A DNA stretch of 64,000 bases from Candidatus Jorgensenbacteria bacterium (GCA_043807585.1 JAZDFV010000002.1:25581-89580), one strand, 5' to 3'; positions 4,823 to 56,469 are shown, counted from the stretch's first letter. Numbers and translations are program-made. Notes: generated from the sequence alone by a model not told the origin.

Positions 4823-5101
4823 TTACACAAAAAACGACAGTAGCTTGAGTTTTATTTTTTCTACCTCGCTCGCGTCCAAATTGTCCGAAGCGTTGAGTTT
4901 CAGATCGCGGATGGCCCGCGCGGCCTCTTCTTTTGAAATACCCTCGGAGAGATAGCGGCCGAAAACCGCCTTCACATACTCCTGCTCCTCTGGGGAGAGC
5001 GCCGAAATCTGCCGGAGGAGCATATCAAGCTTCTCTCTTGAGAGGTGTTTCCCGCCGGAAGGCGAGAGAAAGTCAAAGATACCCATATCAATAAATATCA
5101 A
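4823..5101 (-). CDS. hypothetical small protein (92 aa), AT-rich
   Basis: It is an ORF in the AT-rich islet with no recognised domain. Confidence 0.4.
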   Translation of the reverse strand: MIFIDMGIFDFLSPSGGKHLSREKLDMLLRQISALSPEEQEYVKAVFGRYLSEGISKEEAARAIRDLKLNASDNLDASEVEKIKLKLLSFFV

Positions 5102-5141
5102 GTATTAAGAATCAAATGTCAAATATGTTGTAGGCATACTT

Positions 5142-5165
5142 TCTTATTCGCGCGAATAAGAAAGT
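5142..5165. promoter_or_regulatory. 24-bp perfect palindrome tttcttattcgcgcgaataagaaa (core ATTCGCGCGAAT)
   Basis: The palindrome is perfect, and the same core recurs at 19558 and 32978 upstream of genes. Confidence 0.5.
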
Positions 5166-5234
5166 ACGAGATTTTGAGAGATTGAGAAGCATAAAATAGG
5201 TAAATGCCGAACCACAAGTTTTTTCTTTGGATCG

Positions 5235-6281
5235 CTAAGCGTTCCTTTTATCCCGCTTAGCGGGAATGGCGGCAAATTCTTTCAAATATTTTTTGACCTT
5301 TCCAATAAATAAATCAATTAATAGTATAAAAATTATTAAAAGCAAAATTACCAATAGTTTATGCGTTACCCAAAAGGCATTGATATATATCCAAATATCA
5401 TAGAAAAATCTGTCAAACCAATTGTAATCAGGCGAGGGGAATCTTATTACTTCTTTATTAGCTTTATCGCCATTAACATCTACTTTGATATAGTGATAAA
5501 AATAATGGTCGGGGTCCGTTCCCATTAGTTCAGAACCAGCGCCGCCGGTAATAATATAATTTATTCCATTTTTTGTTTCATCGAAATAAGCATGAATATG
5601 GGAAGCAAAAACAGTATCAACTTTATACTTTTCCATTAAATTAATAAATTCTTGAGCATTCTGTTTGTCGGATAGGGAATGATTGGTGTTGGGACGGGGG
5701 TCAAAAGCTGGCACATGTAAAAAGACAAATTTATGTTGATAGTTTCTCTGCAATTGTTCCTCCAGCCATTTCATCTGCACCGCATCAATTCTTGTTTCAT
5801 TAGCATCGTCTAAGACAACGAATAAAGAATTGCCATAATCAAATGAATAATAAAATTTGCCAAAAATATCAAAATAGTTTTCTGCCCCGCCCTCTCGGAT
5901 ATCGTGATTGCCAACCGCGACCAAAAACGGTGTCTGCTCGTTTTTTATCATATTGTAAAAGATCCGGTATTTTGCTTTTTCACCGTCATACACCAAATCC
6001 CCAACATCAATGGCAAAAGTATAGTGGTTGTTGTCAATATCTTTCAGAATTTTACTAAATATTTTGAAGCTATTTTTATTATCGCCCATCACGGCAAAGC
6101 TGAAGTTGTCTGAAGGCGCGGAAGAATGAATTTTATCAATTTGTTTTTGATTATAATTGCCCGGGCCAACCGGCAAATAATCGTTTAGGCCAATGGTTAT
6201 TAGCAAAATAGCAATGACAACAACGGCAGCAATATGACGCTTTTTAGAGAAATATTTTTTAAAATTATCTTTTAATGACAT
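5235..6281 (-). CDS. membrane-anchored calcineurin-like metallophosphoesterase
   Basis: Phosphoesterase motifs GD, GDLVYDG, GNHD and ASHIH are present, with N- and C-terminal hydrophobic segments. The start was chosen at the internal Met (MSLKDN) because the longer ORF runs into the tRNA-like fragment. Confidence 0.7.
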   Translation of the reverse strand: MSLKDNFKKYFSKKRHIAAVVVIAILLITIGLNDYLPVGPGNYNQKQIDKIHSSAPSDNFSFAVMGDNKNSFKIFSKILKDIDNNHYTFAIDVGDLVYDGEKAKYRIFYNMIKNEQTPFLVAVGNHDIREGGAENYFDIFGKFYYSFDYGNSLFVVLDDANETRIDAVQMKWLEEQLQRNYQHKFVFLHVPAFDPRPNTNHSLSDKQNAQEFINLMEKYKVDTVFASHIHAYFDETKNGINYIITGGAGSELMGTDPDHYFYHYIKVDVNGDKANKEVIRFPSPDYNWFDRFFYDIWIYINAFWVTHKLLVILLLIIFILLIDLFIGKVKKYLKEFAAIPAKRDKRNA

Positions 6282-6317
6282 ATGTTTGTGGGACGCTGAG
6301 CGTCCCGATAACAACGC

Positions 6318-6354
6318 TAAGCGTTGTGCCCGGGGTGGGGGTCGAACCCACACG
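6318..6354 (-). other. degenerate tRNA 3'-half-like fragment (T-arm plus acceptor 3' strand)
   Basis: The minus-strand sequence GTGGG-TTCGACC-CCCAC-CCCGGGC-A looks like a tRNA 3' half. It shares gaacccacacgg with the fragment at 9046-9115. Confidence 0.5.
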
Positions 6355-6363
6355 GCCTTGCGA

Positions 6364-6630
6364 TCACAGGAGTTCTTCAAGCCGTTCGCGTTCCTCGTTG
6401 ATCAGTTCTTGCCATGTGAACGTGCTTTTCCCGCACAGAAATTCCCGCTTCATTTTTTGGTTGTTGTAGAAGAAATTTATCCACGCCCTGCCTTCGGTCG
6501 CGAGATTCACAAAATTTGCTAGCTCTTGGTCGTTCGCCCTGCTGAACAATCTCATCAATTCGCCTCGCTCGATCCCTCCAAGGGTCGAATTTCTTACAAT
6601 GGTTTCAAGTTTGTATAAGTTCGATTCCAT
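6364..6630 (-). CDS. hypothetical protein (88 aa), translationally coupled to the upstream large gene
   Basis: The ORF lies 5 nt after the stop of the 6636..9044 gene, and the region is AT-rich. Confidence 0.4.
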   Translation of the reverse strand: MESNLYKLETIVRNSTLGGIERGELMRLFSRANDQELANFVNLATEGRAWINFFYNNQKMKREFLCGKSTFTWQELINEERERLEELL

Positions 6631-6635
6631 GTTGG

Positions 6636-9044
6636 TTATTTTTCCGGCGATAGGATTTTGTTGTAGGCCTTGAGGAAAAGCACGCCAAGGTTTTTGTCCG
6701 GAGCGACGTAATTTTTGAAATCCTTGTTATTTTTGAAGAGGTTGCCCGCTTTAGCCCAAAGTTCCTGCCATTTTATATTCTTGCCGCTTCGTATCTCATT
6801 GTTGAGCATCTTGAGAAGCTGGTCATTCACCAATTTTACCCCAGTTCCTTTTGTCGAGATGATGTGAGCGTTCGGCGCGCGTTCGAGAACCGCTGCCATG
6901 TTGTTATACCCGCCGCACGAGCCGAGCGATACTATTTTTGCGATTGGAGGTATTCTCTCGATTGTTTTATGGGCGTGATAGCTGTGCCCGCGATGAACTA
7001 CCACGATTGTTTCTATATGTTTCTGCGCGAGAATCTCGTCTATCTTTTTTGGACCCTCGTCCTCATAACTTGGACGGTTCGCATATATTTCGACTTTCTT
7101 TCCGATTCCTTGGGAAACGATCCGCACGTATTCTTTTTTTGCTTCTATGCGCCATTCCGGACTGCCGGCATATTGTGAAAGAAAATTTTTGAACGACCCA
7201 TCGCCGTCTTTGTCGTTATAGAAAAAATATTGCTGGATGTTCGTTCCGTCTTTGTTGAAGAGGTCTTTTGAGGGGATTTCAGTTAGGTTCTGAAGTTTAT
7301 ATTTCTCCGACATTTCGTGTATCCATTCCTTGTTTGCTATAGCTTTCTCGCCAAACATGCCGCTCAAAAGTCCGTAGAGCGTTTTTCCCTCTTCGCTGTT
7401 TTCATTTTTTGCGCGTTCGTATTCGTCTTTGATTTTATCCTGAAACACTTCCAATATTTTTTTGTCTTTCACTATACCAAAGATTTCAGCGACGGTTGTG
7501 GCTTGCATGAGCTTATCTCCCTCTTTCTCTATATTAGAAATAGATCTTTCGAGGACGGTTTTACGCGCGGTTTCGTCCATAGTGTTCAAAAAATCATCCA
7601 ATCTGTTAAAACTAGCGCAGAGTTTTATCAATGTTCTGAATTTATTGTAGCCGTTTTGCTCAAGCAATTGATCGCCGGAGACGTGTTCACTTTTCATTTT
7701 CTCCACAAATCTATTGAACAAACCATTGAACGATGAGGTAAACAACTCCTCATCCCCATAGGTCATGAGAAGGTAGAGTTTCTGTGAAGAATGGTTTTCA
7801 ACCGATTTGAAACGCACGGGGTCCGTTGCTTCATGCAGGTCATTTATTTGCCTTACTTCTTTCAGCACCATCGTCTTTAGATATTTATCAGCTATTTCAC
7901 TTCCAAGGTGGTCCGGACGACTTTTAATCTCCATTAGTTTTTCTAGGAATTTTCCATCGTTTTTTGCGATATTGGCCGTTTCCTCAAGGCTCGTATTTTT
8001 TCTTACGATTTCATCGGTTAGTGCACACATTTTTTCTTGAATGTCGGGCGCGTATGTTGATTTTTTAATTTTTGACAATGTCTGTATGAACGGATCTTTG
8101 CTTTCGTTAAGTATTTTATTCACTTCTCTCTCAATGCCTTTTTCATTATCGATTGTATTGTACGGATCTATAATACCTTCTGGAAATTGCTTGATTGCAT
8201 GCTCAATCATTTCCCTTGCATCGGTAGCAGACGCAAGATTATCTGCGTGTCTTAAAACTGCCCACGGTTCAGTGAAAGCCACTCTCTCAACTATTTTCTT
8301 TCCCCACGGTGTGTTTACAAAATTCTCTGCATGGAAAATTATTGTTGGTGCAGTATTTATTTGCGTTGCCGCTTTTTCTAGAATTTTTTGCGCGTATGGT
8401 TGTGTAATAAAACGGTCTGCAAATTCAAAGGCACCCCAAGGGTCGAAATCTGCCGCTTTTTCTATTATTTTTTCTGCGTAGGGCTCATCTATAAAACGGT
8501 CGGCGAACTCAAGTACTAAGGAATGATTTGTTTTGATAGCTTGCTCTACAACTCGTTTGAGAATATCTTTTCCATTTGGGATGTTTTTATAGTTTTCCGC
8601 ATAACGGAGTGCGCCATAACATCTAGAATAGGGAGGGGGTTGGAATCGCTGCGGATCTAGCATCCCTGCACTCTCATTAACAGCTCCCTCAATGATTTTG
8701 TATGCCCATGGTTTGTACTCGTAGCTATCCGCGACCTCAAGCGCATCAATTGGTTGAAGTCTTGCTAATTCTGCGTACGCTTGTTCATCCAATGAACGTT
8801 TTCCTTCAATCTCCTGTTCGTGGAATCTTGTATATTTGCTGTGCGCAGATTCTGGCCGATCCCTCATCTCCACGATCGAGAGGGTGGTAATGAGGGTAAG
8901 CGCTTTAATGACCAAGCCGCTTTTTTCACGGATTCGCCCGAGTATCGTTTTCTCTTCGGTCTCCAACTTCTCAACGCCCTTTTCCGCGGCGTTTTCTTGA
9001 ATTTCGTTCCCTTCCGGTGAATCGTTTTGTTTTTCGAAATCCAT
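6636..9044 (-). CDS. large helical-repeat (HEAT/TPR-like) protein with a C-terminal putative CHAT (caspase-like) peptidase domain
   Basis: About 38-aa repeats (ADRFI..PYA.KI.EKAA.FDPWGAFE) are followed by a His/Cys dyad-like VVVHRGHSYH ... IVSLGSCGGYN. The start was chosen at MDFEKQN because the longer ORF overlaps tRNA-Leu. Confidence 0.6.
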   Translation of the reverse strand: MDFEKQNDSPEGNEIQENAAEKGVEKLETEEKTILGRIREKSGLVIKALTLITTLSIVEMRDRPESAHSKYTRFHEQEIEGKRSLDEQAYAELARLQPIDALEVADSYEYKPWAYKIIEGAVNESAGMLDPQRFQPPPYSRCYGALRYAENYKNIPNGKDILKRVVEQAIKTNHSLVLEFADRFIDEPYAEKIIEKAADFDPWGAFEFADRFITQPYAQKILEKAATQINTAPTIIFHAENFVNTPWGKKIVERVAFTEPWAVLRHADNLASATDAREMIEHAIKQFPEGIIDPYNTIDNEKGIEREVNKILNESKDPFIQTLSKIKKSTYAPDIQEKMCALTDEIVRKNTSLEETANIAKNDGKFLEKLMEIKSRPDHLGSEIADKYLKTMVLKEVRQINDLHEATDPVRFKSVENHSSQKLYLLMTYGDEELFTSSFNGLFNRFVEKMKSEHVSGDQLLEQNGYNKFRTLIKLCASFNRLDDFLNTMDETARKTVLERSISNIEKEGDKLMQATTVAEIFGIVKDKKILEVFQDKIKDEYERAKNENSEEGKTLYGLLSGMFGEKAIANKEWIHEMSEKYKLQNLTEIPSKDLFNKDGTNIQQYFFYNDKDGDGSFKNFLSQYAGSPEWRIEAKKEYVRIVSQGIGKKVEIYANRPSYEDEGPKKIDEILAQKHIETIVVVHRGHSYHAHKTIERIPPIAKIVSLGSCGGYNNMAAVLERAPNAHIISTKGTGVKLVNDQLLKMLNNEIRSGKNIKWQELWAKAGNLFKNNKDFKNYVAPDKNLGVLFLKAYNKILSPEK

Positions 9045-9045
9045 A

Positions 9046-9115
9046 TTTTGTGTGGTGCCCGAGGTGGGAATCCCAGCCTTCGCCTGACTACGGACGGGCA
9101 GGGAACCCACACGGT
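9046..9115 (-). other. tRNA-like 3'-end fragment abutting tRNA-Leu
   Basis: The minus-strand sequence ends ...GATTCCCACCTCGGGCACCA, which resembles the tRNA-Leu 3' end GATTCCCTCCTCGCCCA. It shares ccgtgtgggttc with the 6318-6354 fragment. Confidence 0.45.
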
Positions 9116-9197
9116 GTGGGCGAGGAGGGAATCGAACCCTCATGGGTTGCCCCACACGATTTTGAGTCGTGCGCGTATACCGTTCCGCCACTCGCCC
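9116..9197 (-). tRNA. tRNA-Leu (anticodon CAA)
   Basis: Manual fold: acceptor GGGCGAG/CTCGCCC, anticodon stem CACGA/TCGTG with loop CTCAAAA, a long variable arm and T-arm GAGGG-TTCGATT-CCCTC. Confidence 0.85.
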
Positions 9198-9343: not shown

Positions 9344-10201
9344 ATGGCAAGAGTAATCGCCATCTTCAACCAGAAGGGGGGCGTGGGGAAAACTACGACC
9401 TCCATGAACCTCTCCGCGTACCTCGCGATGCGCGGCAAGAAAACGCTCCTCATTGATTTTGATCCGCAGTTCAACGCGACCATCGGCCTCGGGGTCACGC
9501 ATGCGCCGGACGAGACCGTCTACCACGCGCTCCTCGCGGGGCAGGACGTGGAGCGGGTGGTGAAACCCACCTATCTCACCCACTTCCACTTGGCGCCCTC
9601 CTCTGCGGACCTCGCGGGAGCACTTATAGAACTCGTTTATCTCCCGGACCGCGAGCAGTATCTCCAACACTTTGTGGAGAAGGTACGCGACCGCTACGAT
9701 TTCATTTTTATCGATCTTGGGCCCAACCTAAACCTCCTCACGGTGAACGGTCTTGTGGCGGCCGACGAGGTCATCGCTCCCATCCAGTGCGAGTATTTCA
9801 GCTTGGAGGGATTGAGCCAGCTCCTCCAAACCATCACCCTCGTGAGGGAGAATCTGGAGCATCCGCTTAAAGTCACGGGAGCGCTCCTCACTATGTACGA
9901 CAAACGGGAACGCCACTCCCGTGAGATCGCGCGCGAGGTGCGGCGGCGTTTCCCGCACAAAGTATTTGATGTGGAAATCCCGCGCTCGGTGGCGCTCGCG
10001 GAGGCACCCCACTACAAGAAACCAATCATGCTCTATGCGCCGCTCTCGCCCGGCGCCTTGGCCTATGAGGCGCTTGCCGATGAGGTGTTGCGGGAGGCGT
10101 ACGGTGTTCCCACGGCGGGGAGCGTACCGCCCGCGCCACCCATGCCAGCGGATTATCCACAATATCCCCGACTTGACCCCGTTAGAGACAGCCCGCCCTA
10201 A
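9344..10201 (+). CDS. parA: ParA/Soj chromosome-partitioning ATPase
   Basis: The ORF carries a deviant Walker A (NQKGGVGKTTT) and ParA-family sequence. The start was taken at MARVIAIF. Confidence 0.85.
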   Translation: MARVIAIFNQKGGVGKTTTSMNLSAYLAMRGKKTLLIDFDPQFNATIGLGVTHAPDETVYHALLAGQDVERVVKPTYLTHFHLAPSSADLAGALIELVYLPDREQYLQHFVEKVRDRYDFIFIDLGPNLNLLTVNGLVAADEVIAPIQCEYFSLEGLSQLLQTITLVRENLEHPLKVTGALLTMYDKRERHSREIAREVRRRFPHKVFDVEIPRSVALAEAPHYKKPIMLYAPLSPGALAYEALADEVLREAYGVPTAGSVPPAPPMPADYPQYPRLDPVRDSPP

Positions 10202-10247
10202 GGGTCCTTTGGACCGCGCTTGCGCGCGGGCGCGGTCTCTAACGGGG
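10177..10247. repeat. CCGTTAG-TIR element copy A
   Basis: ccccgttagagac ... gtctctaacgggg is a perfect 13-bp TIR enclosing a GC-rich palindromic core. Confidence 0.8.
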
Positions 10248-10780
10248 TTGACCCCACATACAACTTGATTAGGTGAGGGGTTGACCACTTTTTCTAATCA
10301 TTTATTATTGTATTCGGCTCGCGTTGATGTGGGTGCTTTTGCAGGGGGCGGCGCATCCGGCCGGTGCGTAGTTCACTGCGGGGCGTTCAATAAAACGCGG
10401 ACCCGCGTGTATACACGTGCGCTAAGACAGAGGAAAGTTGGCGGCACGCGCGCGGGGCACTACTTCACATTCCGAGTTGCTCTTTATATTTCTTTTATTT
10501 TAGAACCTCGGAATGATAAACGAAGGAACGCACCGTGCACGGGCGGCTATACGCCTCTGTTTTAGTTTCCGTTGCTGGACCAAAAATCCCCATGGTGTGG
10601 GGATTTTTGCTGTCAGCAACAGGACCCAGCACCAATTTCGCCGTAGCCCCCGGTAAATTGTGTTTTATGAATTGATTGCGGGTCGCGCTCGCGGCGCGCG
10701 CGTGCCGTATAGGCACACCCCGTTGTGGGCGAAGCGCGTCGCTGCTACGCACTCCGCGAAATTGGTGCTGTGGTGCAGAC

Positions 10781-10796
10781 GGGATATAATAAACTC
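10781..10796 (+). promoter_or_regulatory. putative -10 element (tataat) 7 nt upstream of the parB start
   Basis: The sequence reads gggatataataaactcATG. Confidence 0.4.
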
Positions 10797-11816
10797 ATGT
10801 CCGGCCTCGGTATTTTTTCACTCATTCCAAAAAAAGGAACCGATAAGAAAGAGCAGCTGCCTCCGGGCGGCGTGACCGCTCCCCCGGAGCGGGCATGGGA
10901 AACACGCGTTCCGGCCCACTCCGAGCGGGATCGGCAGGGCGGCGCGCTCCGCAACGGTTCGGCGGTTCTATCCTCAGCGCCGAAGGAGGGCGAACGGAGG
11001 CCCGGTTCCGAACGAAAGATATCAGATGGAAACGAAGCTATTTTCCACATTGAAGTCCACCTAATCAAGCCGAATCCGTTCCAGCCGCGGAGGGAGTTCA
11101 GCGAGATAAACATTGAGGAACTCGCCAGGTCCATCCGCGATTTCGGAATTCTCCAGCCCCTCGTGGTTTCCAAAGTGGTACGCGAGACGGAGGGAGGAAC
11201 CGCGGTGGAATACGAACTCATCGCCGGGGAGCGGCGCCTCCTCGCGGCAAGGAAACTCGGCTTGGAGCGTGTGCCAGTGGTGGTGAAGAGGGTGGATGAG
11301 AACCGGGCGAAGCTCGAGATGTCCTTGATCGAAAACCTCCAGCGGAGCGACCTCTCCGCGCTCGAAATGGCCCGCGCCTACGCGCGTCTCCAAGATGAGT
11401 TCGGGCTCTCCCAGCGTGAGGTGGCGGCGCGGGTGGGGAAGAGCCGCGAGGTGGTGGCGAATGCTCTCCGGCTTCTCGGTCTCCCCCAGGAGATACAGAT
11501 GGCGCTCGGGGCCGGCAGAATCAACGAATCGCAGGCGCGGGCACTCCTTGCCATCGGGAACGCGCCGGAGCAGGAGCGCGTTTTCCAGGAATTTCTCTCG
11601 CGGGGAGGTGCCGTACGCGCGCGACGCGAGAAAACGCCCACGCCGCCGGCGGATCCGGAGGGTGCGTTTTGGGAACGGCGTCTTGAAGAAAAGTTCGGGG
11701 CGCCGGTGAAGGTGGTAAAGAAAGGGAACCGCGGGAAAATCGAGATGCGCTTCCACTCCGAAGAAGAGTGGCACGGGCTGGTAGAAAAACTGGTGGGAGA
11801 AGGTTTGGCAGAATGA
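10797..11816 (+). CDS. parB: ParB/Spo0J partition protein
   Basis: ParB N-terminal box (LQPLVV...ELIAGERR) and an HTH are present. Confidence 0.85.
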   Translation: MSGLGIFSLIPKKGTDKKEQLPPGGVTAPPERAWETRVPAHSERDRQGGALRNGSAVLSSAPKEGERRPGSERKISDGNEAIFHIEVHLIKPNPFQPRREFSEINIEELARSIRDFGILQPLVVSKVVRETEGGTAVEYELIAGERRLLAARKLGLERVPVVVKRVDENRAKLEMSLIENLQRSDLSALEMARAYARLQDEFGLSQREVAARVGKSREVVANALRLLGLPQEIQMALGAGRINESQARALLAIGNAPEQERVFQEFLSRGGAVRARREKTPTPPADPEGAFWERRLEEKFGAPVKVVKKGNRGKIEMRFHSEEEWHGLVEKLVGEGLAE

Positions 11817-13156
11817 CCTCTCGCGCATCATTCACCCTCACCTGCCCGCTTCGCCTTGCGAAGCAAGGCGGGCGGGTTGAGCCCCGCAAAGGTTTTACCT
11901 TGATAGAGCTCCTCGTGGTCATCGCCATTCTTGGCACCATCGCCGTGGCCGTGGTTTTAGTCATCAACCCCGCCGAGCTTATCAAGCAGGCGCGGGACTC
12001 GACCCGCCTCGAGGACCTTGGAACCATCAATCGTATCCTCGGTCTCTTCCAGGCCGACCAAGTGGATGCCTTCATGGGCACCTCCTCAATCGTATACGTC
12101 TCGGTCCCCGATACCTCCGCCACCTGCGTGAACCTCGGCCTCCCGACGCTTCCCAGTGGTTGGAGCTACGCCTGTGCCCCCACGAGCACCCTTCAGAAGG
12201 CGGACGGCACGGGCTGGATTCCTGTGAATCTCACCGCCTTCTCCGCTGGTTCCCCCCTCTCCAAGTTCCCCGTGGACCCCGTGAACGCTACCTCCACGGG
12301 CGAATACTATGCCTACGTCACTGGCTCATCTTGGGAACTGACGGCTTTTCTCAAGTCCGACAAATACAAAATGGGCGGTGGGAGTGATAAAGCCAGCAAA
12401 GACAGTGGCCAACACCCCGAGCTCTATGAACTTGGCTCCACTCTCAAACTCACCCCGGTCACAAGAGACCCTTCTTTGGTCGGGTACTGGAAGCTTGATG
12501 AAACGAGCGGTACCCTCTATGACACATCTGGCCACGGGAACAACGGCACGCAATCGGGGGGTGTAACCTACGGCGCGACCGGCAAGGTGGGGAACGCTTT
12601 GAGTTTTGATGGGGTGGATGATTATGTTTCTACGATCCTCTCGCCGCCATCAACAGTTCCTGTGTCGGTTCTTCTCTGGATTTACCCCACTGACAATACT
12701 GTGTCTCATTGTGTTGTTTCTCGTCCCCCCGCTGGTTGGTTTCCCCTCTATGGGGTTTGTCCATATTTATCAACAAATGAAGTATATAACTATACTAACG
12801 GATTATACGGTCTATATCTACAGACGACGGAATCCTACGGCGCTGCTATGCGTGTTACTTCAAACGTTTCACCGCCCAACAACACTTGGAGTCAGGTGGG
12901 ATTTACCTATGACGGGAGTAGTTTCACCTTGTTTTACAACGGTCAAGCTACTGGGAAAACGCTTTGGTGCAAGACAGGGGGATGCAATGAGAATCAAAAC
13001 TATTTGAGTATCTCAGGTTCTCAGACACATTCTTTGGGTAAAGCAAATGATGCCTGGAAGTCAAACCTTTTCCAAGGCAGTATCGACGACATCCGTATCT
13101 ATAATCGTGCCCTCTCCGCGGCTGAAATTAGTGCTATTTACAGTGCCACGCAATAG
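11813..13156 (+). CDS. type IV pilin-like protein with C-terminal LamG/ConA-like lectin domain (copy 1)
   Basis: It has a prepilin leader (RKGFTLIELLVVIAIL) and a C-terminal LamG-like region (FDGVDDYV...IDDIRIYNRALSAAEISAIY). ATGA overlaps the parB stop. Confidence 0.75.
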   Translation: MTSRASFTLTCPLRLAKQGGRVEPRKGFTLIELLVVIAILGTIAVAVVLVINPAELIKQARDSTRLEDLGTINRILGLFQADQVDAFMGTSSIVYVSVPDTSATCVNLGLPTLPSGWSYACAPTSTLQKADGTGWIPVNLTAFSAGSPLSKFPVDPVNATSTGEYYAYVTGSSWELTAFLKSDKYKMGGGSDKASKDSGQHPELYELGSTLKLTPVTRDPSLVGYWKLDETSGTLYDTSGHGNNGTQSGGVTYGATGKVGNALSFDGVDDYVSTILSPPSTVPVSVLLWIYPTDNTVSHCVVSRPPAGWFPLYGVCPYLSTNEVYNYTNGLYGLYLQTTESYGAAMRVTSNVSPPNNTWSQVGFTYDGSSFTLFYNGQATGKTLWCKTGGCNENQNYLSISGSQTHSLGKANDAWKSNLFQGSIDDIRIYNRALSAAEISAIYSATQ

Positions 13157-13178
13157 CAAATTAATGACATCGTAAAGA

Positions 13179-14384
13179 ATGACCTCTTGCGCATCATTCA
13201 CCCTCATAGAGCTCCTCGTCGTGATAGCGATCCTGGGGGTCTTGGCCACAGTCGTCATCCTCGTCATCAACCCCGCCGAGCTCATCAAGCAGGCGCGGGA
13301 CTCGACCCGCCTCGAGGACCTTGGAACCATCAATCGTATCCTCGGTCTCTTCCAGGCCGACCAAGTGGATGCCTTCATGGGCACCTCCTCAATCGTATAC
13401 GCCTCGGTCCCCGATACCTCCGCCACCTGCGTGAACCTCGGCCTCCCGACGCTTCCCAGTGGTTGGAGCTACGCCTGTGCCCCCACGAGCACCCTTCAGA
13501 AGGCGGACGGCACGGGCTGGATTCCTGTGAATCTTACCGCCTTCTCCGCTGGTTCCCCCCTCTCCAAGTTCCCCGTGGACCCCGTGAACACCACCTCCAC
13601 GAGCCAGTACTACACCTATGTAACGGGGGGGAGTTGGGAGCTGACCGCAGTCACCGAATCCTCAAAGTATGCTTCCAAATCCTCATCTGATGGCGGGGTA
13701 GACCCCGCCATGCTTGAGGTAGGGTCCGATCCTGGACTCGATCTCTCGCCCTTCGCCCATGGGATGGTGGGGTATTGGATGTTTGATGAGACGGGCACGA
13801 CCGCCAATGACAGCTCGGGTTATGCAAACACTGGCACCATGTATTCATCTTCAACTATCTCCGACTTACATACTTCTTCTAATTGTAAAGCTGGAAGTTG
13901 TGTGAGTCTTGATGGGACAGATGATTATGTGAGAATTCCAACGCTAGGGCCTTATGGTAGCTTCACATACCTTGCATGGATAAAATCAACAAATATTAAC
14001 AGTCCTTCTACACAACCTATTATTCATGGTCCCTCTGAAGGATGGAATAGTTTTAATATTAACTCCTCGAAATTAAGATATGGTAGTTATGGTGGTGTTG
14101 GGTGCGGCGGTGCAAACTCATTCAGCAATACCTCTCTTGCATCTAATACATCTTATTTTGTCGCAATGACCTATAACAGGAACGGACAATGGCAATCCTT
14201 TATTAATGGAGCTCTTGACAGTAGTACCAACCATAATTGTTCTCCAGGGTCAGGAGTATACGATATCGGCTCTGCAAGTAGCTACTCAGCACAAAAGTTT
14301 TATGGGATCATCGACGACGTCCGCATCTACAACAGGGCACTATCGGCATCAGAAATTAGCGCTATTTACAATGCAACGCAATAA
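13179..14384 (+). CDS. type IV pilin-like protein with divergent C-terminal LamG-like domain (copy 2)
   Basis: The N-terminal roughly 140 codons are near-identical to copy 1 at nucleotide level, and the C-terminal half is different. Confidence 0.75.
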   Translation: MTSCASFTLIELLVVIAILGVLATVVILVINPAELIKQARDSTRLEDLGTINRILGLFQADQVDAFMGTSSIVYASVPDTSATCVNLGLPTLPSGWSYACAPTSTLQKADGTGWIPVNLTAFSAGSPLSKFPVDPVNTTSTSQYYTYVTGGSWELTAVTESSKYASKSSSDGGVDPAMLEVGSDPGLDLSPFAHGMVGYWMFDETGTTANDSSGYANTGTMYSSSTISDLHTSSNCKAGSCVSLDGTDDYVRIPTLGPYGSFTYLAWIKSTNINSPSTQPIIHGPSEGWNSFNINSSKLRYGSYGGVGCGGANSFSNTSLASNTSYFVAMTYNRNGQWQSFINGALDSSTNHNCSPGSGVYDIGSASSYSAQKFYGIIDDVRIYNRALSASEISAIYNATQ

Positions 14385-14427
14385 AGCATATCCGCATCTA
14401 CCAAAGCCCTATCTGGCACCACGAAAT

Positions 14428-14466
14428 AAACCCCCACACCCATGCATAGGTGTGGGGGTAAAATTT
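14428..14466 (+). terminator. rho-independent terminator-like hairpin
   Basis: The stem-loop is cccccacaccc-atgcata-gggtgtggggg followed by aaaatttt. Confidence 0.7.
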
Positions 14467-14510
14467 TCAATATTGATTTGATGAAACCGCCCTCAGTCAC
14501 CGGTGAGAGT

Positions 14511-14528
14511 GCTATGCTGTAGCATAGC
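14511..14528. promoter_or_regulatory. palindromic operator-like site GCTATGCTgTAGCATAGC (copy 1 of 3)
   Basis: It is an 18-bp palindrome with one mismatch, and the same palindrome occurs at 14611 and 15111. Confidence 0.55.
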
Positions 14529-14610
14529 GCCTGACTTGACCTTCATCTTCTTTCCATCCCGTTTCTTCTTTCCATCCCGCCTCCTCTTTTTCCATCCTGC
14601 CTTCCTGCCC

Positions 14611-14628
14611 GCTATGCTATAGCATAGC
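14611..14628. promoter_or_regulatory. palindromic operator-like site GCTATGCTATAGCATAGC (copy 2)
   Basis: It is a perfect 18-bp palindrome about 30 nt upstream of the TrpR-like gene. Confidence 0.55.
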
Positions 14629-14655
14629 AGCATGCTATACTAGTTTTGTGAATTT

Positions 14656-15108
14656 ATGAACAAAAAAGTCGCCGACAAGACGAACGAGATGAAGAAGGAA
14701 AAAAACGGGGTGATGCCGCTCGTCAGCGATTATTCTTCCCGGACAGAGTGGGAAACCGCTTGCTGGCGGAAGCTCCTCCAATCCAAAGAATTACTCCGAT
14801 TACTCGTTACTTCTCACGAACGTCATAACTTGGTAATGCGGGCCGCGGCTTTAGACCGACTTATTGCCGGTAAAAGCTACAAGCAAATTGGTAGAGAACT
14901 ATGGCTTTCGCCCCAAACCATCAGCGGTATCAAAAAAGCTCTAAAGGAAAAGAGCTATCAGAGCTATCAGAGCTATCAGAGCTATCTGGAGCGGAGTAAA
15001 AAAGAACGAAAAAAGAGAAAATACAGCTTCAATTCCCTCCCTGCCAAAGCAAGGTCTCGCGGCCGGCCTCACCGCACAAAGTACGGGACGATTTATCTGC
15101 CCTTCTAA
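14656..15108 (+). CDS. TrpR/YerC-YecD-like small DNA-binding protein
   Basis: An HTH region (SYKQIGRELWLSPQTISGIKKA) resembles the Trp-repressor/YerC family. It contains an SYQSYQSYQSY run encoded by a 9-nt tandem repeat. Confidence 0.6.
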   Translation: MNKKVADKTNEMKKEKNGVMPLVSDYSSRTEWETACWRKLLQSKELLRLLVTSHERHNLVMRAAALDRLIAGKSYKQIGRELWLSPQTISGIKKALKEKSYQSYQSYQSYLERSKKERKKRKYSFNSLPAKARSRGRPHRTKYGTIYLPF

Positions 15109-15110
15109 GT

Positions 15111-15128
15111 ACTATGCTATAGCATAGC
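15111..15128. promoter_or_regulatory. palindromic operator-like site (copy 3), immediately after the TrpR-like gene
   Basis: The sequence is actatgctatagcatagcgg. Confidence 0.5.
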
Positions 15129-15589
15129 GGGACAGATGAGTTTATTTATCAAGGAGGGATTTGCGGGCGAAACCGACTAAAACCGCATCCATCCTCCTTC
15201 GCTCCAACTTTTCGTCGGAGTTTCGGAAGGACAAGCAGCCGCGCCCTCCTTGCCTTCGCTCAATCCTCGGCAGGTGGGCCTGCCCGTCCGAAGCTGCAGC
15301 GGAGGAGGGTCCGCCGCAGAAATTCAGGCAATTTATAACCCCGCTCAATAGAGCCATCCCTGCCTGCCGCCCGCCCGTCGCCTGCCTGCCGGTAGGCAGG
15401 GTCGGCAGGACAGGCAGGTACAACGCAGGCCAATAATTAATCAAGGCGTACTTGTGCACCGCTCATCTTTTGGAGGATTGCCCCAAGGGTGAGGAGGATC
15501 GGTTCCGACCTCGCCTCTTGACAAGTCAAGGTTCCTCCCTATACTTATCAATTGTGATTAGCAACAAAAGGTCGTTGGTGCTAACAACC

Positions 15590-16000: not shown

Positions 16001-16127
16001 CACCAAATCCCAAGCACCAAATCCCAAATAAACTCCAATCGCTGAAATCTTGGTACAATAATTGAGACGGTTTTGAATTTGGAATTTGAGATTTATTTGT
16101 AATTTGGAATTTGTGGTTTGGAATTTC
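16001..16127. repeat. CCAAAT/ATTTGG word-palindrome element (copy upstream of groEL)
   Basis: caccaaatcccaagcaccaaatcccaaat ... ttggaatttgagatttatttgtaatttggaatttgtggtttggaatttc; the same family occurs at 50641 and 56311. Confidence 0.75.
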
Positions 16128-16135
16128 AACTAATT

Positions 16136-25440: not shown

Positions 25441-25518
25441 GTACACCCCGTTAGAGACAAGCCGCCCCTTGGCGGCTGTAGCCCCGCCTTTGGCATGGCG
25501 GTCTCTAACGGGGTACAC
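25441..25518. repeat. CCGTTAG-TIR element copy B
   Basis: gtacaccccgttagagac ... gtctctaacggggtacac is a perfect 18-bp TIR. Confidence 0.8.
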
Positions 25519-30866: not shown

Positions 30867-31090
30867 AAGATCCCGCGCAGCGGGATAAAGAATTATGAAC
30901 AAAGAGATCATCTACTGTGAGCAGTGCTATCAAAGCGAGGTGACTTAAATAAAACGCTATGACATGTCATAGCGCCATACCATGGTTATAGCACCGAGAG
31001 AATCTAAGAAAAGTTAGGATATGACACAAGAGACCAGAACCTACCAGAACTGTCCCGCTACGCGGGATCTCGCGAAGCGAGACAAACACT

Positions 31091-32890
31091 ATGTCTGAAT
31101 CAGAAACAATAGTTTGTCAGAATTGTCATAGTTCCTTCGTCATTGAATCGGAGGATTTTACGTTCTACGAGAAAATAAAAGTCCCGCCGCCGACGTGGTG
31201 CCCGGAGTGCGACAGTGCAAAGAGAATGACTTGGAGAAACGAGAGATCTTTGTATTGGCGCGATTGCGGTTTGTGCGGTAAGAAAACACTCTCGATGTAT
31301 TCAAAAGAAAATCCTTTTACTGTTTATTGTCATAAATGTTGGATATCGGATAAGTGGGACTCATTAGTATTCGGGAGAGATTATGATTTTCAGAAAGATT
31401 TTTTCACGCAATTTTCAGAACTCCAAAAAAGCGTACCCCGCGCCTCGGTTCTCCAATATGGGACCAGTGTAAATTGCGAATTTACAAACTACACCAGAAA
31501 CACAAAAAATGTCCTCCTAGCCTATTCGGTTTCTACCGGTGAAAATATATATTATTCATTCACTGTAGATTGGTCTAAAGACGCGTTGGATTCTTTAATG
31601 TTGAAGAATTCCGAATTGATATTTGAAGGATTTAATTCGGATCATTGTTATAATTCTCAATTTCTCGTAGATTGCCGCGATTGCACCGAATCATCGTATT
31701 TGTATGATTGTGTGAACTGCCAGAATTGTTTTATGTCGGTGAACCTTAGAAACAAACAGTTCGTTTTTTATGGAAGACAGCTTTCGAAAGAAGAATATAG
31801 CAAAGCAATTTTAGAAATTGATATCGGAAGTTTTGAGACGAGGGGAAGATTAAAAGAAGAATTTCATAATGTTATTTTGCAAACAATTCATAAGTATGGA
31901 GATGTAGTTAAGGTTGTTAACTGCACCGGCAACTATCTTTCGAATTGCAAAAACGTGAAAAATTCATATAGCGTGTATGATTCCGAGAACGTAAGAAACA
32001 CCATTCGCGCCTTGAAAGCGAGAGACATCAGGAGTGTTTTTAGCTGCGGAGAAGGGAGCGAACTTATTTATAGCGGGATTGTCGGTGGCAAAACCAGTTC
32101 TAATATAAAATTTTTTGCAAGTGCGGATGTGCTACGCGAATCGCAATACACCGATTGGTGTTTAAGTTCATCAAATCTCTTCGGCTGCATCGGCCTTCGC
32201 AACAAGCAGTACTGCATCCTTAACAAGCAATACACGAAGGAGGAATATGAAGCCCTTGTACCCCGCATCATCGACCACATGAACACCATGCCCTATGTAG
32301 ATACCAAGGGCAGGATATACAAATATGGCGAGTTCTTCCCCCCGGAATTGTCTCCCTTCGCCTACAACGAAACCATCGCACAGGAGTATTTCCCCCTGAC
32401 CAAGGATAAAGCTATTCAACAGGGCTACCGCTGGAGGGACGCGGATACGAGAGATTACAAAATAACCAAGAGACCGGAGGATCTCCCCGACCACATCAAA
32501 GATGTAGAGGATGCAATATTGAAAGAAACCATCCAATGCATGCACCACCCTTCGGCAGGCTCAGGGCAGGCCGCCTGCAATCACCAATGCACCACCGCCT
32601 TCAAGGTTATCCCAGAAGAACTTGCCTTCTACCGCAGAATGAACCTCCCGCTCCCACGTCTTTGCCCCAACTGCCGGCACTACGAACGCCTAAAGCAGCG
32701 GAATCCCCTGAAGCTCTGGCACCGCACCTGCCAGTGTGCGGGAGGAAAAAGCGAGAACGGTGTCTACGAGAACACCATAACCCACCCACACGGCACCGGC
32801 CACTGCCTAAACGAATTCGAGACCAGTTACGCTCCAGAGAGAAAGGAAATCGTGTACTGCGAGAGTTGTTATAATACTGAAGTGGTATGA
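31091..32890 (+). CDS. Cys-rich protein (599 aa) with homologous N- and C-terminal double zinc-ribbon modules flanking internal Cys/Asn-rich repeats
   Basis: Multiple CxxC pairs are present. The termini are related (F.I..E..FY......P..CP.C ... LW.R.C), and there is an internal repeat (CFMSVNLRNKQFVFYGRQLSKEEYSKA / CIGLRNKQYCILNKQYTKEEYEAL). Confidence 0.7.
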   Translation: MSESETIVCQNCHSSFVIESEDFTFYEKIKVPPPTWCPECDSAKRMTWRNERSLYWRDCGLCGKKTLSMYSKENPFTVYCHKCWISDKWDSLVFGRDYDFQKDFFTQFSELQKSVPRASVLQYGTSVNCEFTNYTRNTKNVLLAYSVSTGENIYYSFTVDWSKDALDSLMLKNSELIFEGFNSDHCYNSQFLVDCRDCTESSYLYDCVNCQNCFMSVNLRNKQFVFYGRQLSKEEYSKAILEIDIGSFETRGRLKEEFHNVILQTIHKYGDVVKVVNCTGNYLSNCKNVKNSYSVYDSENVRNTIRALKARDIRSVFSCGEGSELIYSGIVGGKTSSNIKFFASADVLRESQYTDWCLSSSNLFGCIGLRNKQYCILNKQYTKEEYEALVPRIIDHMNTMPYVDTKGRIYKYGEFFPPELSPFAYNETIAQEYFPLTKDKAIQQGYRWRDADTRDYKITKRPEDLPDHIKDVEDAILKETIQCMHHPSAGSGQAACNHQCTTAFKVIPEELAFYRRMNLPLPRLCPNCRHYERLKQRNPLKLWHRTCQCAGGKSENGVYENTITHPHGTGHCLNEFETSYAPERKEIVYCESCYNTEVV

Positions 32891-33546: not shown

Positions 33547-35454
33547 ATGGCCGAAGAGAACGAGCATAACGTAGCGTATTTCGGGCGGGTGGATTTCAGG
33601 AGCTCCGAGCGCCTTTTTGGCATCCGGCGGCAGGACCGCCGGCAGCACATGTACGTCATCGGGAAGAGCGGTACCGGGAAGAGCGCGATGCTCCACAACC
33701 TCATCGTGCAGGACATCGCGAATGGTGAAGGTCTCTGCGTTGTGGACCCCCACGGCGATCTCGTGGAGAGCATCCTGCCGAAGATCCCGAAAGAGCGCAT
33801 AAACGATGTCATCTATTTCAACCCCGCGGACTCCGACTTCAACATCGGGTTCAACGTGCTGGAGCTTCCGGACCCAAAGTACAAGCACCTTGTGGCCTCC
33901 GGGCTCATGGGGATTTTCACCAAAATTTGGTCCAACGTCTGGTCCGCGCGGATGGAGTACATTCTGAACAACGCCATCCTCGCGCTCTTGGATACGCCCG
34001 GCACGACGCTCCTCGGGGTGAGCCGCATCCTCGTGGACAAGGAGTTCCGCCAGAAGATCCTTGCGAACGTGAAGGACCCCGTGGTGCGCTCGTTCTGGTT
34101 GAACGAGTTCGAGGAGTGGCGTGACCAGTTCAGGAACGAGGCCATCGCGCCGATCCAGAACAAGGTGGGGCAGTTCCTCTCCACCGCAATGGTGCGGAAC
34201 ATCGTGGGGCAGGCGAAGAGCACCATTGACATCTTCAGCATCATGAACGAGGGGAAGATCTTCCTCGTGAACGTTTCCAAGGGGCGCATCGGCGAGGACA
34301 ACTCGGCGCTCTTGGGTGCGATGCTCATCACCAAGATCCAGCTCGCGGCCATGGAACGGGTGCGGGTGTCGGAGGAGGAACGGGTGGATTTCTACCTCTA
34401 CGTGGATGAGTTTCAGAACTTTGCAACCGATTCGTTCGCGGGCATCCTCTCCGAGGCGCGGAAGTACCGCCTGAACCTTATCCTCGCCCACCAGTATGTG
34501 GGCCAGCTCGTCACGATGGGGGCGGGCGCGATCTCGACCAAGGTGCGGGACGCGGTCTTCGGGAACGTCGGCACCATGGTGGTGTTCCGCGTGGGGGCCG
34601 CCGATGCCGAATATTTGGAGACCGAATTTACACCCGAGTTCCTCCCAGAGGACATTGTGAACCTCCCGAACTACTCGGTGTATCTGAAGCTCATGGTGGA
34701 TGGGGTCACGAGCCGCCCCTTTTCCGCGCACACCCTCCCACCATTCAAGGTGCAGGCCTCGGAAACCATCAGCGAAGAAATCATCAACAATTCACGCAAG
34801 CGGTACGCGCGCCCCCGCTACGCGGTGGAGGAGGAAATAGCCATCTGGAGCGGCATGGCGCCGGGAGCAGGCCCGGGGGAGTTCGTGCCGCGCCCTGGCG
34901 TGGGGGGGAAGTATCAGGCAGTCTGCTCTTCCTGCGGTAAGGAGACCACTGTTCCCTTCGAGCCCCAGCAGGGCCGCCCGGTGTACTGCAAAGAATGTTT
35001 GGAGAAAATAAAGGCGGGAGAATTGGAGCCGGTGCGGGTGATGCCGGCTTTTGAGAGGCGGGGAACGGAGCAGACGGCGGACATGTCGGCGCTCGCGGGT
35101 TTGGGGATCGAGTTCAGCGGGAAGGGTTCGGCAGGGGCACCGCGGGAGGGGGGTGGTCCGTCGCGGCGCGAGGAGCGTGGGGGGTTCCACCCGAGGCCGC
35201 AGGACGAGCGCGCACCCTCCCACCGGCCAGCCGGTCCCTCTAGGCCCTCCTTCGAGCCTCGCCCCTCCATTTTGCGTGGTACGAGAACCGAGAGTGCCTT
35301 GACTTCGTCGGAAGAGGAAGAGCATGAACTTCGGTTGAGCGAGCTCACGCCGACAGAGAAAAAGGATGCCCACCCGCCGCAGGGCGGCAGGGAACCGGAT
35401 ATCACCGGTCTCCGCGAGGCGCTCCGGGATGCGCTGGGGAAATTGAAGGAGTAA
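33547..35454 (+). CDS. TraD/VirD4-like type IV coupling-protein-family ATPase with C-terminal C4 zinc ribbon and R/G/P-rich disordered tail
   Basis: It has Walker A (GKSGTGKS), Walker B (YVDEFQNF), a T4CP-like RKYRLNLILAHQ, a zinc ribbon (CSSCGKE...CKEC) and a low-complexity tail. Confidence 0.75.
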   Translation: MAEENEHNVAYFGRVDFRSSERLFGIRRQDRRQHMYVIGKSGTGKSAMLHNLIVQDIANGEGLCVVDPHGDLVESILPKIPKERINDVIYFNPADSDFNIGFNVLELPDPKYKHLVASGLMGIFTKIWSNVWSARMEYILNNAILALLDTPGTTLLGVSRILVDKEFRQKILANVKDPVVRSFWLNEFEEWRDQFRNEAIAPIQNKVGQFLSTAMVRNIVGQAKSTIDIFSIMNEGKIFLVNVSKGRIGEDNSALLGAMLITKIQLAAMERVRVSEEERVDFYLYVDEFQNFATDSFAGILSEARKYRLNLILAHQYVGQLVTMGAGAISTKVRDAVFGNVGTMVVFRVGAADAEYLETEFTPEFLPEDIVNLPNYSVYLKLMVDGVTSRPFSAHTLPPFKVQASETISEEIINNSRKRYARPRYAVEEEIAIWSGMAPGAGPGEFVPRPGVGGKYQAVCSSCGKETTVPFEPQQGRPVYCKECLEKIKAGELEPVRVMPAFERRGTEQTADMSALAGLGIEFSGKGSAGAPREGGGPSRREERGGFHPRPQDERAPSHRPAGPSRPSFEPRPSILRGTRTESALTSSEEEEHELRLSELTPTEKKDAHPPQGGREPDITGLREALRDALGKLKE

Positions 35455-56462: not shown

Positions 56463-56469
56463 TAAACTT

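Follow-up and report, generated by a model that had tools for sequence, protein, structure and literature searches.

Among modular pilins, the combination of N_methyl with PF13385 is one of the most frequent architectures, and the species that represent the 15 commonest ones include members of CPR phyla (Raynaud et al. 2021, PMC8179133). PilC of Streptococcus sanguinis, a pilin with a lectin module, binds glycans (PMC9934059), and in Saccharibacteria host binding involves lectin-like minor pilins (PMC11623550). PilX1 of Nanosynbacter lyticus TM7x is a Patescibacteria minor pilin with a C-terminal, L-type-lectin-like beta-jelly-roll head, proposed to act in glycan-dependent host binding and encoded in the T4P locus; its jelly roll is missed by domain searches (PMC11623550). 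Pilin paralogs that keep a near-identical N-terminal part while the exposed part differs have also been described, including PilA1-6 of Haloferax volcanii, whose H-domain, the assembly-relevant part, is near-identical (PMC4371748), and PilE1/PilE2 of S. sanguinis, which are 85% identical (PMC9934059). Ultra-small CPR bacteria are believed to use type IV pili for finding their hosts and staying attached to them, and lectin-headed pilins are obvious candidates for the specificity determinant.

Here we analyse two adjacent genes of this kind from Candidatus Jorgensenbacteria (Patescibacteria/CPR). They lie on the same strand, separated by 22 nt, within a stretch of 64 kb that was analysed as a whole and is referred to below as the window. 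The genes and their surroundings are as follows.

10725..11816, plus strand: parB (Pfam ParB_N, HTH_ParB, ParB_C), whose TGA stop overlaps the ATG of copy 1 (ATGA)
11813..13156, plus strand: copy 1, a modular pilin-LamG gene of 447 aa (P0005 in the NCBI MAG annotation)
12608..13132, plus strand: LamG (Laminin_G_3) domain of copy 1 (Pfam residues 266-440)
13179..14384, plus strand: copy 2, a modular pilin-LamG gene of 401 aa (P0001) with the 6-residue leader MTSCAS
13911..14360, plus strand: LamG domain of copy 2 (Pfam residues 245-394)
14430..14459, no strand: a terminator-like 13-bp palindrome, CCCCCACACC..GGTGTGGGGG, after the copy 2 stop
14656..15108, plus strand: TrpR-like HTH gene; in the relatives L004 and L005 a 58% identical homolog comes after the tandem pilin-LamG pair

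Prepilin-type N-termini fused to LamG/ConA-like domains had been proposed from the sequence alone, and both Pfam and predicted structures agree. In each copy, N_methyl and Laminin_G_3 score above their curated cut-offs, with N_methyl at 32.6 bits in copy 1 and 26.3 bits in copy 2 (cut-off 21.2) and Laminin_G_3 at E-values of 3.9e-18 and 1.2e-20, and both copies match TIGR02532. The lectin-like fold of the C-terminal domains also withstood structure prediction, in which AlphaFold models (pLDDT 92.7 for copy 1 and 83.7 for copy 2) gave ConA/LamG jelly rolls. Foldseek searches of the PDB returned 5hon_A with a TM of 0.76-0.80 and, among the matches, trans-sialidase lectin domains; the copy 1 head matched 5hon, TeNT HCN, and BoNT HCN, and a PDB profile search found 4qvs (2.7e-23). 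By its domain order, each protein consists of a class III signal peptide, predicted to be cut before Phe+1 and followed by Glu+5, then a pilin module of ~185 residues that combines a long alpha1 helix with a small beta-sheet, the latter carrying an invariant Cys pair; a short linker then leads to a LamG/ConA-like jelly roll. Taking the whole explanation together (paralogs, conversion tract, leader scar, and proposed function), we consider it likely that copies 1 and 2 are two old paralogous modular type IV pilins.

This order of parts is that of S. sanguinis PilC and of the N_methyl + PF13385 architecture in general. PilC differs in having a very short pilin moiety, an extra Ig-like module, a place in the pil operon, and Gly at -1, whereas the window proteins, known from their sequence, have the longer pilin module, lie outside any pilus operon, belong to a set of multiple paralogs, and mostly have Ser at -1. 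By its description, PilX1 resembles them in being a Patescibacteria pilin headed by a lectin-like jelly roll; unlike its head, those of the window are clear Laminin_G_3 domains. The resemblance to PilA1-6 and PilE1/PilE2 lies in the conserved N-terminal part of the paralogs; those are, however, small non-modular pilins, described without DNA-level conversion tracts or lectin heads. The N_methyl + LamG architecture is very large, at ~2,040 cluster representatives, and already catalogued, and the locus itself is an ordinary example of it. What it adds is a clean, dated case of scaffold homogenisation by conversion beside foreign-looking heads.

The sequence-only reading had seen some 320 nearly identical nucleotides in the two genes and attributed them to recent gene conversion or duplication. 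The stretch is real, with limits differing by a few bases from those first proposed, and its edges are sharp.

11894..11959, plus strand: copy 1 segment coding for FTLIELL and the hydrophobic alpha1-N, with the protein conserved and synonymous sites saturated against copy 2
11960..12286, plus strand: conversion tract on the copy 1 side, the probable donor, 324/327 identical to copy 2 (dS 0.024)
13263..13589, plus strand: conversion tract on the copy 2 side, the probable recipient, 324/327 identical to the copy 1 side

Three mismatches, T/C, T/C, and C/T at 11980, 12099, and 12232, divide the tract into exact runs of 20, 118, 132, and 54 nt. When the mismatches of the N-terminal half were permuted, none of 10,000 permutations reached the tract, and the longest stretch with at most three mismatches never exceeded 93 nt. 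Between the copies, dS is 0.024 in the tract versus 1.73 in the alpha1-N segment, and it is 1.9-2.3 on the 3′ side (1.94 in the conserved 3′ end, about 2.2 in the heads); the protein is conserved in both the alpha1-N segment and the 3′ end despite the saturated synonymous sites. Since saturation on both sides of so young a tract points to old paralogs with one recent conversion event rather than to a recent duplication, the 327-nt identity is best read as an internal gene-conversion tract, and of the two causes first offered only conversion stands. The transfer probably ran from copy 1 to copy 2, as judged from a single outgroup, L007: copy 1 is uniformly identical to it (0.82 in the flank, 0.83 in the tract), and the identity of copy 2 to it jumps from 0.71 in the flank to 0.83 in the tract.

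Two other accounts of the identical stretch were weighed. A recent tandem duplication followed by very fast head divergence under diversifying selection would fit the tandem order, the 99% identical tract, and the conserved gene ends, but it is contradicted by saturated dS exactly where the protein is conserved, by an alpha1-N segment of copy 1 that is nearer to the gene of another sample (82% to L007) than to copy 2 (65%), and by a low GC3 in the heads that cannot come from amino-acid selection alone; we regard it as quite improbable. An assembly artefact, with two strains or loci collapsed or joined into a chimera, has to be considered for a MAG contig in which the repeat exceeds a typical short read. 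The exact runs between mismatches are nevertheless within reach of large k-mers and read pairs, each copy has distinct flanks on both sides within one contig, and independent assemblies from other samples keep the tandem layout and mosaic N-terminal halves, which leaves this account barely credible. An internal conversion between old paralogs thus remains our reading of the tract.

The 5′ end of copy 1 raises a separate question. In relatives, a transketolase gene lies upstream and a TrpR-like gene downstream, whereas in the window parB abuts copy 1, whose long leader sits at this synteny breakpoint. Three features overlap there.

11810..11840, plus strand: 5′ block, 30/31 identical to 13176-13206 of copy 2 (AGA, ATG, and 9 codons, MTS[R/C]ASFTL)
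11841..11903, plus strand: 63-nt in-frame segment absent from copy 2 in the alignment, flanked by the imperfect direct repeat TTCACCCTCA / TTTACCTTGA
11837..11881, plus strand: stable stem-loop in the leader-coding segment (core 11844-11877, loop GAA)

The 21-codon in-frame insertion with a hairpin reported earlier for copy 1 was thereby borne out, at exactly 63 extra bases and with a stable stem-loop: a 70-nt fold has -33.2 kcal/mol (z = -3.8), which none of 200 shuffles equalled. The 10-nt flanking repeats agree at 7/10 positions, and the three differences are all synonymous. No in-frame ATG, GTG, or TTG occurs in the segment (11841-11903). Hairpin-bearing extensions beside duplicated FT(L) codons are also found in the relatives P0013 and P0023/P0079, and relatives with extensions have in-frame TTG or GTG starts, so that what lies upstream of these is probably non-coding or the remnant of a gene fragment. 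On our best reading, a reconstruction, the 63 extra bases would be a scar left when a rearrangement brought parB to lie immediately 5′ of copy 1: behind a new ATG, former untranslated or leader DNA, hairpin included, would have become part of the reading frame. Such a long leader would be harmless, because it is removed by cleavage between Gly and Phe. The 31-nt 5′ block, which the sequence-only reading did not mention, ends exactly at the start of the 63-nt segment; ordinary conversion leaves it unexplained, because there is no homology to its left. As a side observation, the motif GGGTTGASCCC loosely ties the segment to promoter-like elements at 10245 and 55600; its four matches exceed the 0.11 expected, but their contexts differ, and we give this little weight. 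For the hairpin or region, an Rfam search pointed to no known RNA family, giving only two chance-level matches far below gathering scores.

At the cleavage site, the sequence is ...RKG/FTLIELLVVIAILG in copy 1 and CAS/FTLIELLVVIAILG (MTSCAS/FTLIELL) in copy 2, the slash marking the predicted cut. Gly at -1 is the classical bacterial rule for class III signal peptides. The family as a whole departs from it: among 117 proteins, 81 have Ser at -1, 24 have Gly (as in copy 1), and 12 have Ala, whereas F, T, L, and E of the prepilin motif are invariant in 111 relatives. The missing canonical Gly of copy 2, which the sequence-only reading had pointed out, is therefore no anomaly, Ser being the state of the majority; a 6-residue leader with Ser at -1 is the family norm, and the long leader of copy 1 is the odd one.

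The heads had been described as unrelated in sequence, which the alignment contradicts: they align end to end at 34-42% identity, belong to the same Pfam family, and share the conserved ends VGYW..DE and IDD[IV]RIYNRALSA.EISAIY..TQ. Their composition differs from that of the scaffold, with GC3 of about 0.49 in the copy 1 head versus 0.72 in its N-terminal half, and about 0.37 versus 0.76 in copy 2; parA, parB, and groEL lie at 0.70-0.76. Relatives share the pattern of a conserved scaffold, invariant in its Cys pair, and divergent heads: in 59 of 62 informative pairs with at least 80% identical pilin modules, the LamG heads are at most 54% identical. The syntenic tandem pair of L004/L005 carries clustered patches in which one copy took the bases of the other, the partner of the patched gene being identical between the two samples. 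When the heads of the window and L004 are compared, scores within a genome are higher than across genomes. A profile scan of genome contigs with the family alignment, dominated by generic pilin/LamG motifs, gave no close relative among the matches listed, and among the 23 loci that a metagenome scan with a clade-conserved 20-mer found, there were only two pilins, neither of them a close relative. A look-up by exact protein sequence gave no hit for either copy, although the protein collection contains them as P0001 and P0005.

Within a genome, scaffolds would be kept alike by conversion and by the constraint of a common assembly machinery, while heads outside the tracts would be free to diverge or be replaced. 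The pattern of homogenised scaffolds beside foreign-looking heads recurs in relatives, and it therefore points to a testable route for host-range evolution. The looser evolutionary idea of one scaffold with interchangeable heads agrees with the family-wide data. A stronger form, in which the Patescibacteria pilin-LamG family is an evolutionary cassette system whose scaffold is kept uniform within a genome by frequent short conversion tracts and whose heads are both swapped between paralogs and imported, is tentative and to our minds somewhat doubtful. Import of LamG heads from other lineages would explain their low GC3; if the stronger form were true, episymbionts could change host or ligand specificity quickly, and recombination traffic would have left its traces in odd 5′ ends such as the hairpin leader of copy 1 and the duplicated FTLIELL at the start of P0023/P0079.

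Three further alternatives were considered. A programmed cassette or antigenic-variation system of the Neisseria pilE/pilS type, in which frequent directed recombination swaps head-coding cassettes into an expression locus, is suggested by two tandem copies with a common 5′ half, by near-identical scaffolds bearing different heads across the family, and by short identical tracts that also occur at the 5′ ends of paralogs. The two systems indeed share gene conversion between pilin paralogs with a conserved N-terminal and a differing C-terminal part. In Neisseria, however, silent, promoterless, 5′-truncated cassettes pass variable sequence to a single expression locus with the aid of a G4 upstream of it, whereas here each gene is complete and has a start codon and a cleavage motif of its own, and the tract lies in the conserved scaffold, dS being saturated in the heads. 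The further silent LamG or pilin cassettes suggested earlier did not appear in a six-frame motif scan of the 64 kb, which gave only the two complete genes and no truncated fragments; neither strand of 10000-15500 holds a G4 motif (G3+N1-7 x4), no inverted repeats flank or lie near the two genes, and the window ORFs scanned include neither a recombinase nor a reverse transcriptase. The tandem locus is not a programmed switching system, an account we hold to be very improbable for the pair, and the proposed cassette system for varying an adhesive tip is not supported in that programmed sense. The 63-nt segment might be a small mobile palindromic element (MITE/REP-like) inserted in FTL codons with duplication of a ~10 bp target, as its strong hairpin between direct repeats and the similar extensions in P0013 and P0023/P0079 would allow. 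Against this stand the mismatches at 3/10 bases of the repeats, the relatives' alternative starts upstream, the position of the segment exactly at the synteny breakpoint, the lack of a second hairpin copy in the 64-kb window at up to 3 mismatches, and a GCGAAGC loop motif that is not enriched (21 observed, 16 +/- 4.5 expected). The window covers roughly one tenth of the genome size estimated as typical for the group. We judge a mobile element unlikely, and a rearrangement scar remains our reading of the leader.

The third alternative concerns function. On the preferred reading, the pilin module would serve to build each protein into a type IV filament, leaving the LamG head to bind some ligand, most probably a glycan displayed by a host cell or another surface; a scaffold that comes with two different heads would then offer two specificities. 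The proteins could instead be membrane-held surface lectins or competence/secretion pseudopilins, given that the genes lie scattered among housekeeping genes away from pilus operons, that the window encodes ComEC, and that relatives are often named "type II secretion system protein" or PulG; type IV pilus machinery and prepilin peptidase genes were likewise absent among the scanned ORFs of the 64-kb window. Conservation of Glu+5, Phe+1, and the whole pilin module, including the Cys pair, argues otherwise, as do stand-alone forms of the same module, proteins of 170-320 aa that resemble ordinary pilins, and the bulky-headed modular pilins that are pilus components in S. sanguinis (PMC8179133, PMC9934059). 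A non-filament role is accordingly a minority possibility, and we favour candidate filament subunits.

Three other candidates were set aside. A diversity-generating retroelement was rejected: it should show template and variable repeats that differ at adenines, close to a reverse transcriptase gene, and here the tract mismatches are not adenine-specific and no such gene is among the scanned ORFs. Phage origin found no support, phage records having no DNA similarity to the region. The tandem arrangement is not a family rule, since five other loci are singletons among housekeeping genes. Downstream of the pair, the palindrome at 14430-14459 probably marks the end of the transcription unit.

The two pilin-LamG genes are separated by 22 nt, with the parB stop codon overlapping the start of copy 1 (ATGA), and both exact proteins are present in an NCBI metagenome-assembled genome (MAG) of Candidatus Jorgensenbacteria, on a 91.5-kb contig.

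Features of the tandem locus, including parts of the alignment of copy 1 with copy 2 (window coordinates)
11813-13156, plus strand: copy 1, pilin-LamG gene, 447 aa (P0005)
13179-14384, plus strand: copy 2, pilin-LamG gene, 401 aa (P0001)
11810-11840 and 13176-13206: 5′ block, 30/31 identical
11841-11903: 63 extra in-frame bases in copy 1
Directly 5′ of the tract: FTLIELL and alpha1-N coding segment, only 65% identical
11960-12286 and 13263-13589: near-identical tract, 324/327 identical
12600-13150 and 13800-14384: sharp GC3 drop within the genes
14430-14459: terminator-like 13-bp palindrome, 3′ of copy 2
14656-15108: TrpR-like HTH gene, next after the palindrome

Both proteins match Pfam N_methyl and Laminin_G_3 above the curated cut-offs, as well as TIGR02532, bearing out the prepilin N-termini and LamG-type C-terminal domains called from the sequence alone. 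In the AlphaFold2 models, built on 111-sequence alignments (copy 1 pLDDT 83.7, copy 2 pLDDT 92.7), a long helix at the N-terminus is followed by a small module of beta-sheet and then by a beta-sandwich at the C-terminus; the 27-residue leader of copy 1 is disordered. The predicted lectin-like character of the C-terminal domains, or heads, is likewise upheld by Foldseek, whose PDB matches are ConA-like/LamG jelly rolls, namely arabinanase AbnA domain 4 (TM 0.76-0.80 on target), HCN domains from the tetanus and botulinum toxins, and trans-sialidase lectin domains. A profile search of PDB sequences concurs, with pilin and pseudopilin matches confined to the N-terminal helix.

At the DNA level, the alignment of copy 1 with copy 2 is a mosaic of six parts, in which identity falls off fast 3′ of the tract. 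Alignment and folding confirmed the near-identical stretch, the in-frame insertion and the hairpin described in the sequence-only reading, whose sole wrong statement of observation was that the heads are unrelated; they share 34-42% protein identity and conserved ends. By the Nei-Gojobori method, dS is 0.024 over the 109 codons of the tract. The 22-codon alpha1-N segment gives 1.73, the remainder of the pilin module with the linker 2.3, the LamG domain 2.2, and the conserved C-terminal end 1.9. From this contrast, the copies are old paralogs and the tract is a recent, sharply bounded gene-conversion event; of the two origins initially proposed, conversion stands, while the tract as a leftover of recent duplication is rejected by the saturated divergence outside it. 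The observed 327 nt compares with 93 nt for the longest run with at most three mismatches in 10,000 permutations. An assembly artefact could also produce an identical stretch, but in the tract the mismatches leave exact runs of 20, 118, 132, and 54 nt, which common assemblers can resolve, and the same tandem layout occurs in L004 and L005, independent assemblies of two other samples. A DGR reading was also rejected, no signature being found (tract mismatches T/C, T/C, and C/T). As for direction, the relative at locus L007 (P0013, another sample) is 82% identical to copy 1 and 71% to copy 2 in the alpha1-N segment, but 83% identical to both across the tract; judged against this one outgroup, the tract seems to belong originally to copy 1, with copy 2 as the recipient.

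Base composition also changes along the genes. GC3 is 0.72-0.76 in the two pilin modules, or scaffolds, similar to parA, parB, and groEL (0.70-0.76), and falls to 0.49 in the head of copy 1 and 0.37 in that of copy 2, with breaks near 12600 and 13800; the L007 gene drops alike, from 0.78 to 0.49. This pattern is compatible with acquisition of the heads from lower-GC donors.

The combination of similar scaffolds and dissimilar heads recurs in relatives. Among the best 120 matches, in a database whose clustering at 90% identity collapses pairs alike throughout, so that discordant pairs can be called numerous but not given as a fraction, the pilin modules share 80% identity or more in 66 pairs, and in 59 of the 62 informative ones the LamG heads are at most 54% identical. 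L004 and L005 each hold a tandem pair (copies a and b) followed by a TrpR-like gene 58% identical to that of the window; within the pair, the N-terminal half is 70-97% identical in DNA, in patches, and the head about 40-50%. Copy b is identical between the two samples, while copy a, with a 99% identical head, has 58 differing sites within the first 640 nt. The L005 copy a has the b-copy base at 37 of them, clustered at 18-30 and 471-510, a case of conversion caught between two close lineages. Between L006 and L008, identity declines from 95-100% over the first 120 nt to 35-45% in the head. In other genomes, the pilin-LamG genes are singletons amid housekeeping genes, so tandem pairs are one variant and no rule. 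The order conserved in relatives is transketolase, pilin-LamG (one or two copies), TrpR-like HTH gene, and pfkB, which the window follows on the TrpR-like side only, the other side being parAB; the TrpR-like gene might be a regulator of the pilin genes.

Coordinates in the relatives' conserved-order loci
L004: 7359-8348 and 11282-11680
L005: 3130-3507
L007: 3-587

The family is large: a word-indexed search gave more than 2,000 relatives, and HMMER, run exhaustively over 1.84 billion cluster representatives, gave 2,040 at E <= 1e-30 (11,381 at E <= 1e-10), the best 150 being mostly colinear and ~400 aa long. They come from Patescibacteria MAGs under names such as "LamG-like jellyroll fold domain-containing protein" or PulG-like. 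Proteins of 170-320 aa have the pilin module alone, and it is also joined to other heads (TIG/IPT, DUF4215, and PF13287+PF13290 in the set P0120, P0141, P0143, P0187, P0221), including an FGE-sulfatase head, a fold typical of DGR targets, on a 73% identical scaffold in P0120, which fits a role as general carrier scaffold. Giant proteins of 1,300-7,000 aa (P0241, P0242, P0311, P0253, and others) contain 6-23 LamG stretches resembling the pilin heads and could be reservoirs or relatives of head modules. In the family alignment (P0001-P0120), the residue preceding FTLIELL is Ser in 81 of 117 proteins, Gly in 24, and Ala in 12, and the modal leader has 6 residues. Copy 2, whose missing Gly had been taken as a departure, is thus typical of the family, and it is copy 1 that is unusual. 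Since the Gly that is classical at −1 of the prepilin cleavage motif is mostly absent, the Ser-rich position implies a putative prepilin peptidase with relaxed, archaeal-like specificity.

The 63-nt segment in the copy 1 leader contains an interrupted stem-loop of 15 pairs, and the 70-nt fold reaches -33.2 kcal/mol (z = -3.8), equalled by no shuffle. The segment has no in-frame ATG, GTG or TTG, so translation must start at 11813 if the cleavage motif is kept. The segment lies exactly between the 31-nt block common with copy 2 and DNA with saturated synonymous sites, at a synteny break where transketolase is upstream in L004 and L007 but parB adjoins copy 1. Ancestral 5′ UTR or leader DNA, with its hairpin, may have been taken into frame behind a new ATG; GTT GAG CCC CGC AAA GGT/TTT (slash, cleavage site) would give a leader of the modal 6 residues, MEPRKG, if GTT was once GTG. 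Origin from a mobile element is less likely, as the hairpin is found once in the 64-kb window and the repeats bordering the segment agree at just 7 of 10 positions. Other relatives also have distinctive starts. In P0013, an in-frame TTG yields MKLCTG/FTLIELL, and the palindrome upstream resembles the intergenic palindromes of this window. In P0023 and P0079 (doubled starts at L006 276-400 and L008 19-140), a start codon and an orphan MRHSFTLIELL fragment come first; a GC-rich spacer containing a GCCC-TTCG-GGGC hairpin, then a GTG in frame and another SFTLIELL in different codons come after it. This looks like the 5′ fragment of one pilin gene joined in frame to the front of a complete one; this 5′ end is common to the two paralogs, whose heads are 34% identical. 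Because the leader is cut off at G/F, the copy 1 extension should be neutral for the mature protein, and its hairpin could affect coupling to parB or mRNA fate.

Proteins of this kind are already known. Raynaud et al. defined modular pilins and listed the 15 commonest architectures, in which PF13385 is one of the carbohydrate-binding modules and several CPR phyla are among the representative species (PMC8179133); S. sanguinis PilC is a tip-located pilin with a glycan-binding ConA-like module (PMC9934059), and lectin-like minor pilins have been linked to host binding in Saccharibacteria TM7x (PMC11623550). To this the locus adds a scaffold conversion tract with good dating, the family's preference for Ser at −1, and hints that heads are exchanged. 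The cassette system proposed earlier finds no support as stated. The Neisseria pilE/pilS model fails to fit on the three features tested: silent cassettes, for which the 64-kb window was scanned, tract location, and a G4 motif, sought at 10000-15500. The main value of the locus is as an entry point to the question of whether heads are swapped between family members.

Otherwise the window carries ordinary chromosomal genes (rpoC, ssb, parAB, groES/EL, thyX, dnaG, rpoD, alaS, comEC, fusA, tuf, and ribosomal protein genes), and no pilus machinery, recombinase or reverse transcriptase was found among its scanned ORFs. Amid the housekeeping genes are ORFs for a TrwB/VirD4-like coupling ATPase with a treble-clef zinc finger (33547-35454) and a protein with a homing-endonuclease-associated HNH_repeat (47049-47843). 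AT-rich islands (GC 0.36-0.44 against a background of about 0.57) include 5001-9000, 31001-32000, and 55001-56000; two island genes, of 851 aa (6636-9191, minus strand) and 599 aa (31091-32890), have no Pfam match above the cut-off.

Intergenic repeats are also present. The 11-mer TCTAACGGGGT occurs 14 times with at most one mismatch, against about 1 expected, mostly as inverted pairs, ACCCCGTTAGA...TCTAACGGGGT, around 50-105 nt of variable intergenic sequence, and these pairs look like a family of intergenic structured elements.

Sites of the 11-mer repeat
Inverted pairs: 10176-10248, 25445-25514, 49999-50105, 55756-55877, 57110-57234, 59873-59979
Single arms: 45253, 55593

GGGGTTGAC follows the TCTAACGGGGT repeat at 10238 and 55593; the former runs into a promoter-like hexamer pair, and the latter is similar by eye. 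AT-rich arrays of TTTGGAATTTG-like units, direct and inverted (16003-16131, 50636-50775, and 56336-56466; families D7, D8, I1-I3, I9, I10), flank groES/groEL, fusA, and the L4 ribosomal protein gene. At 57600-64000, repeated spacers of 47-168 nt (families D1, D3, D5, D11, D15) separate ribosomal protein genes L2, L22, S3, and L5, an unusual layout, as ribosomal protein operons are normally compact.
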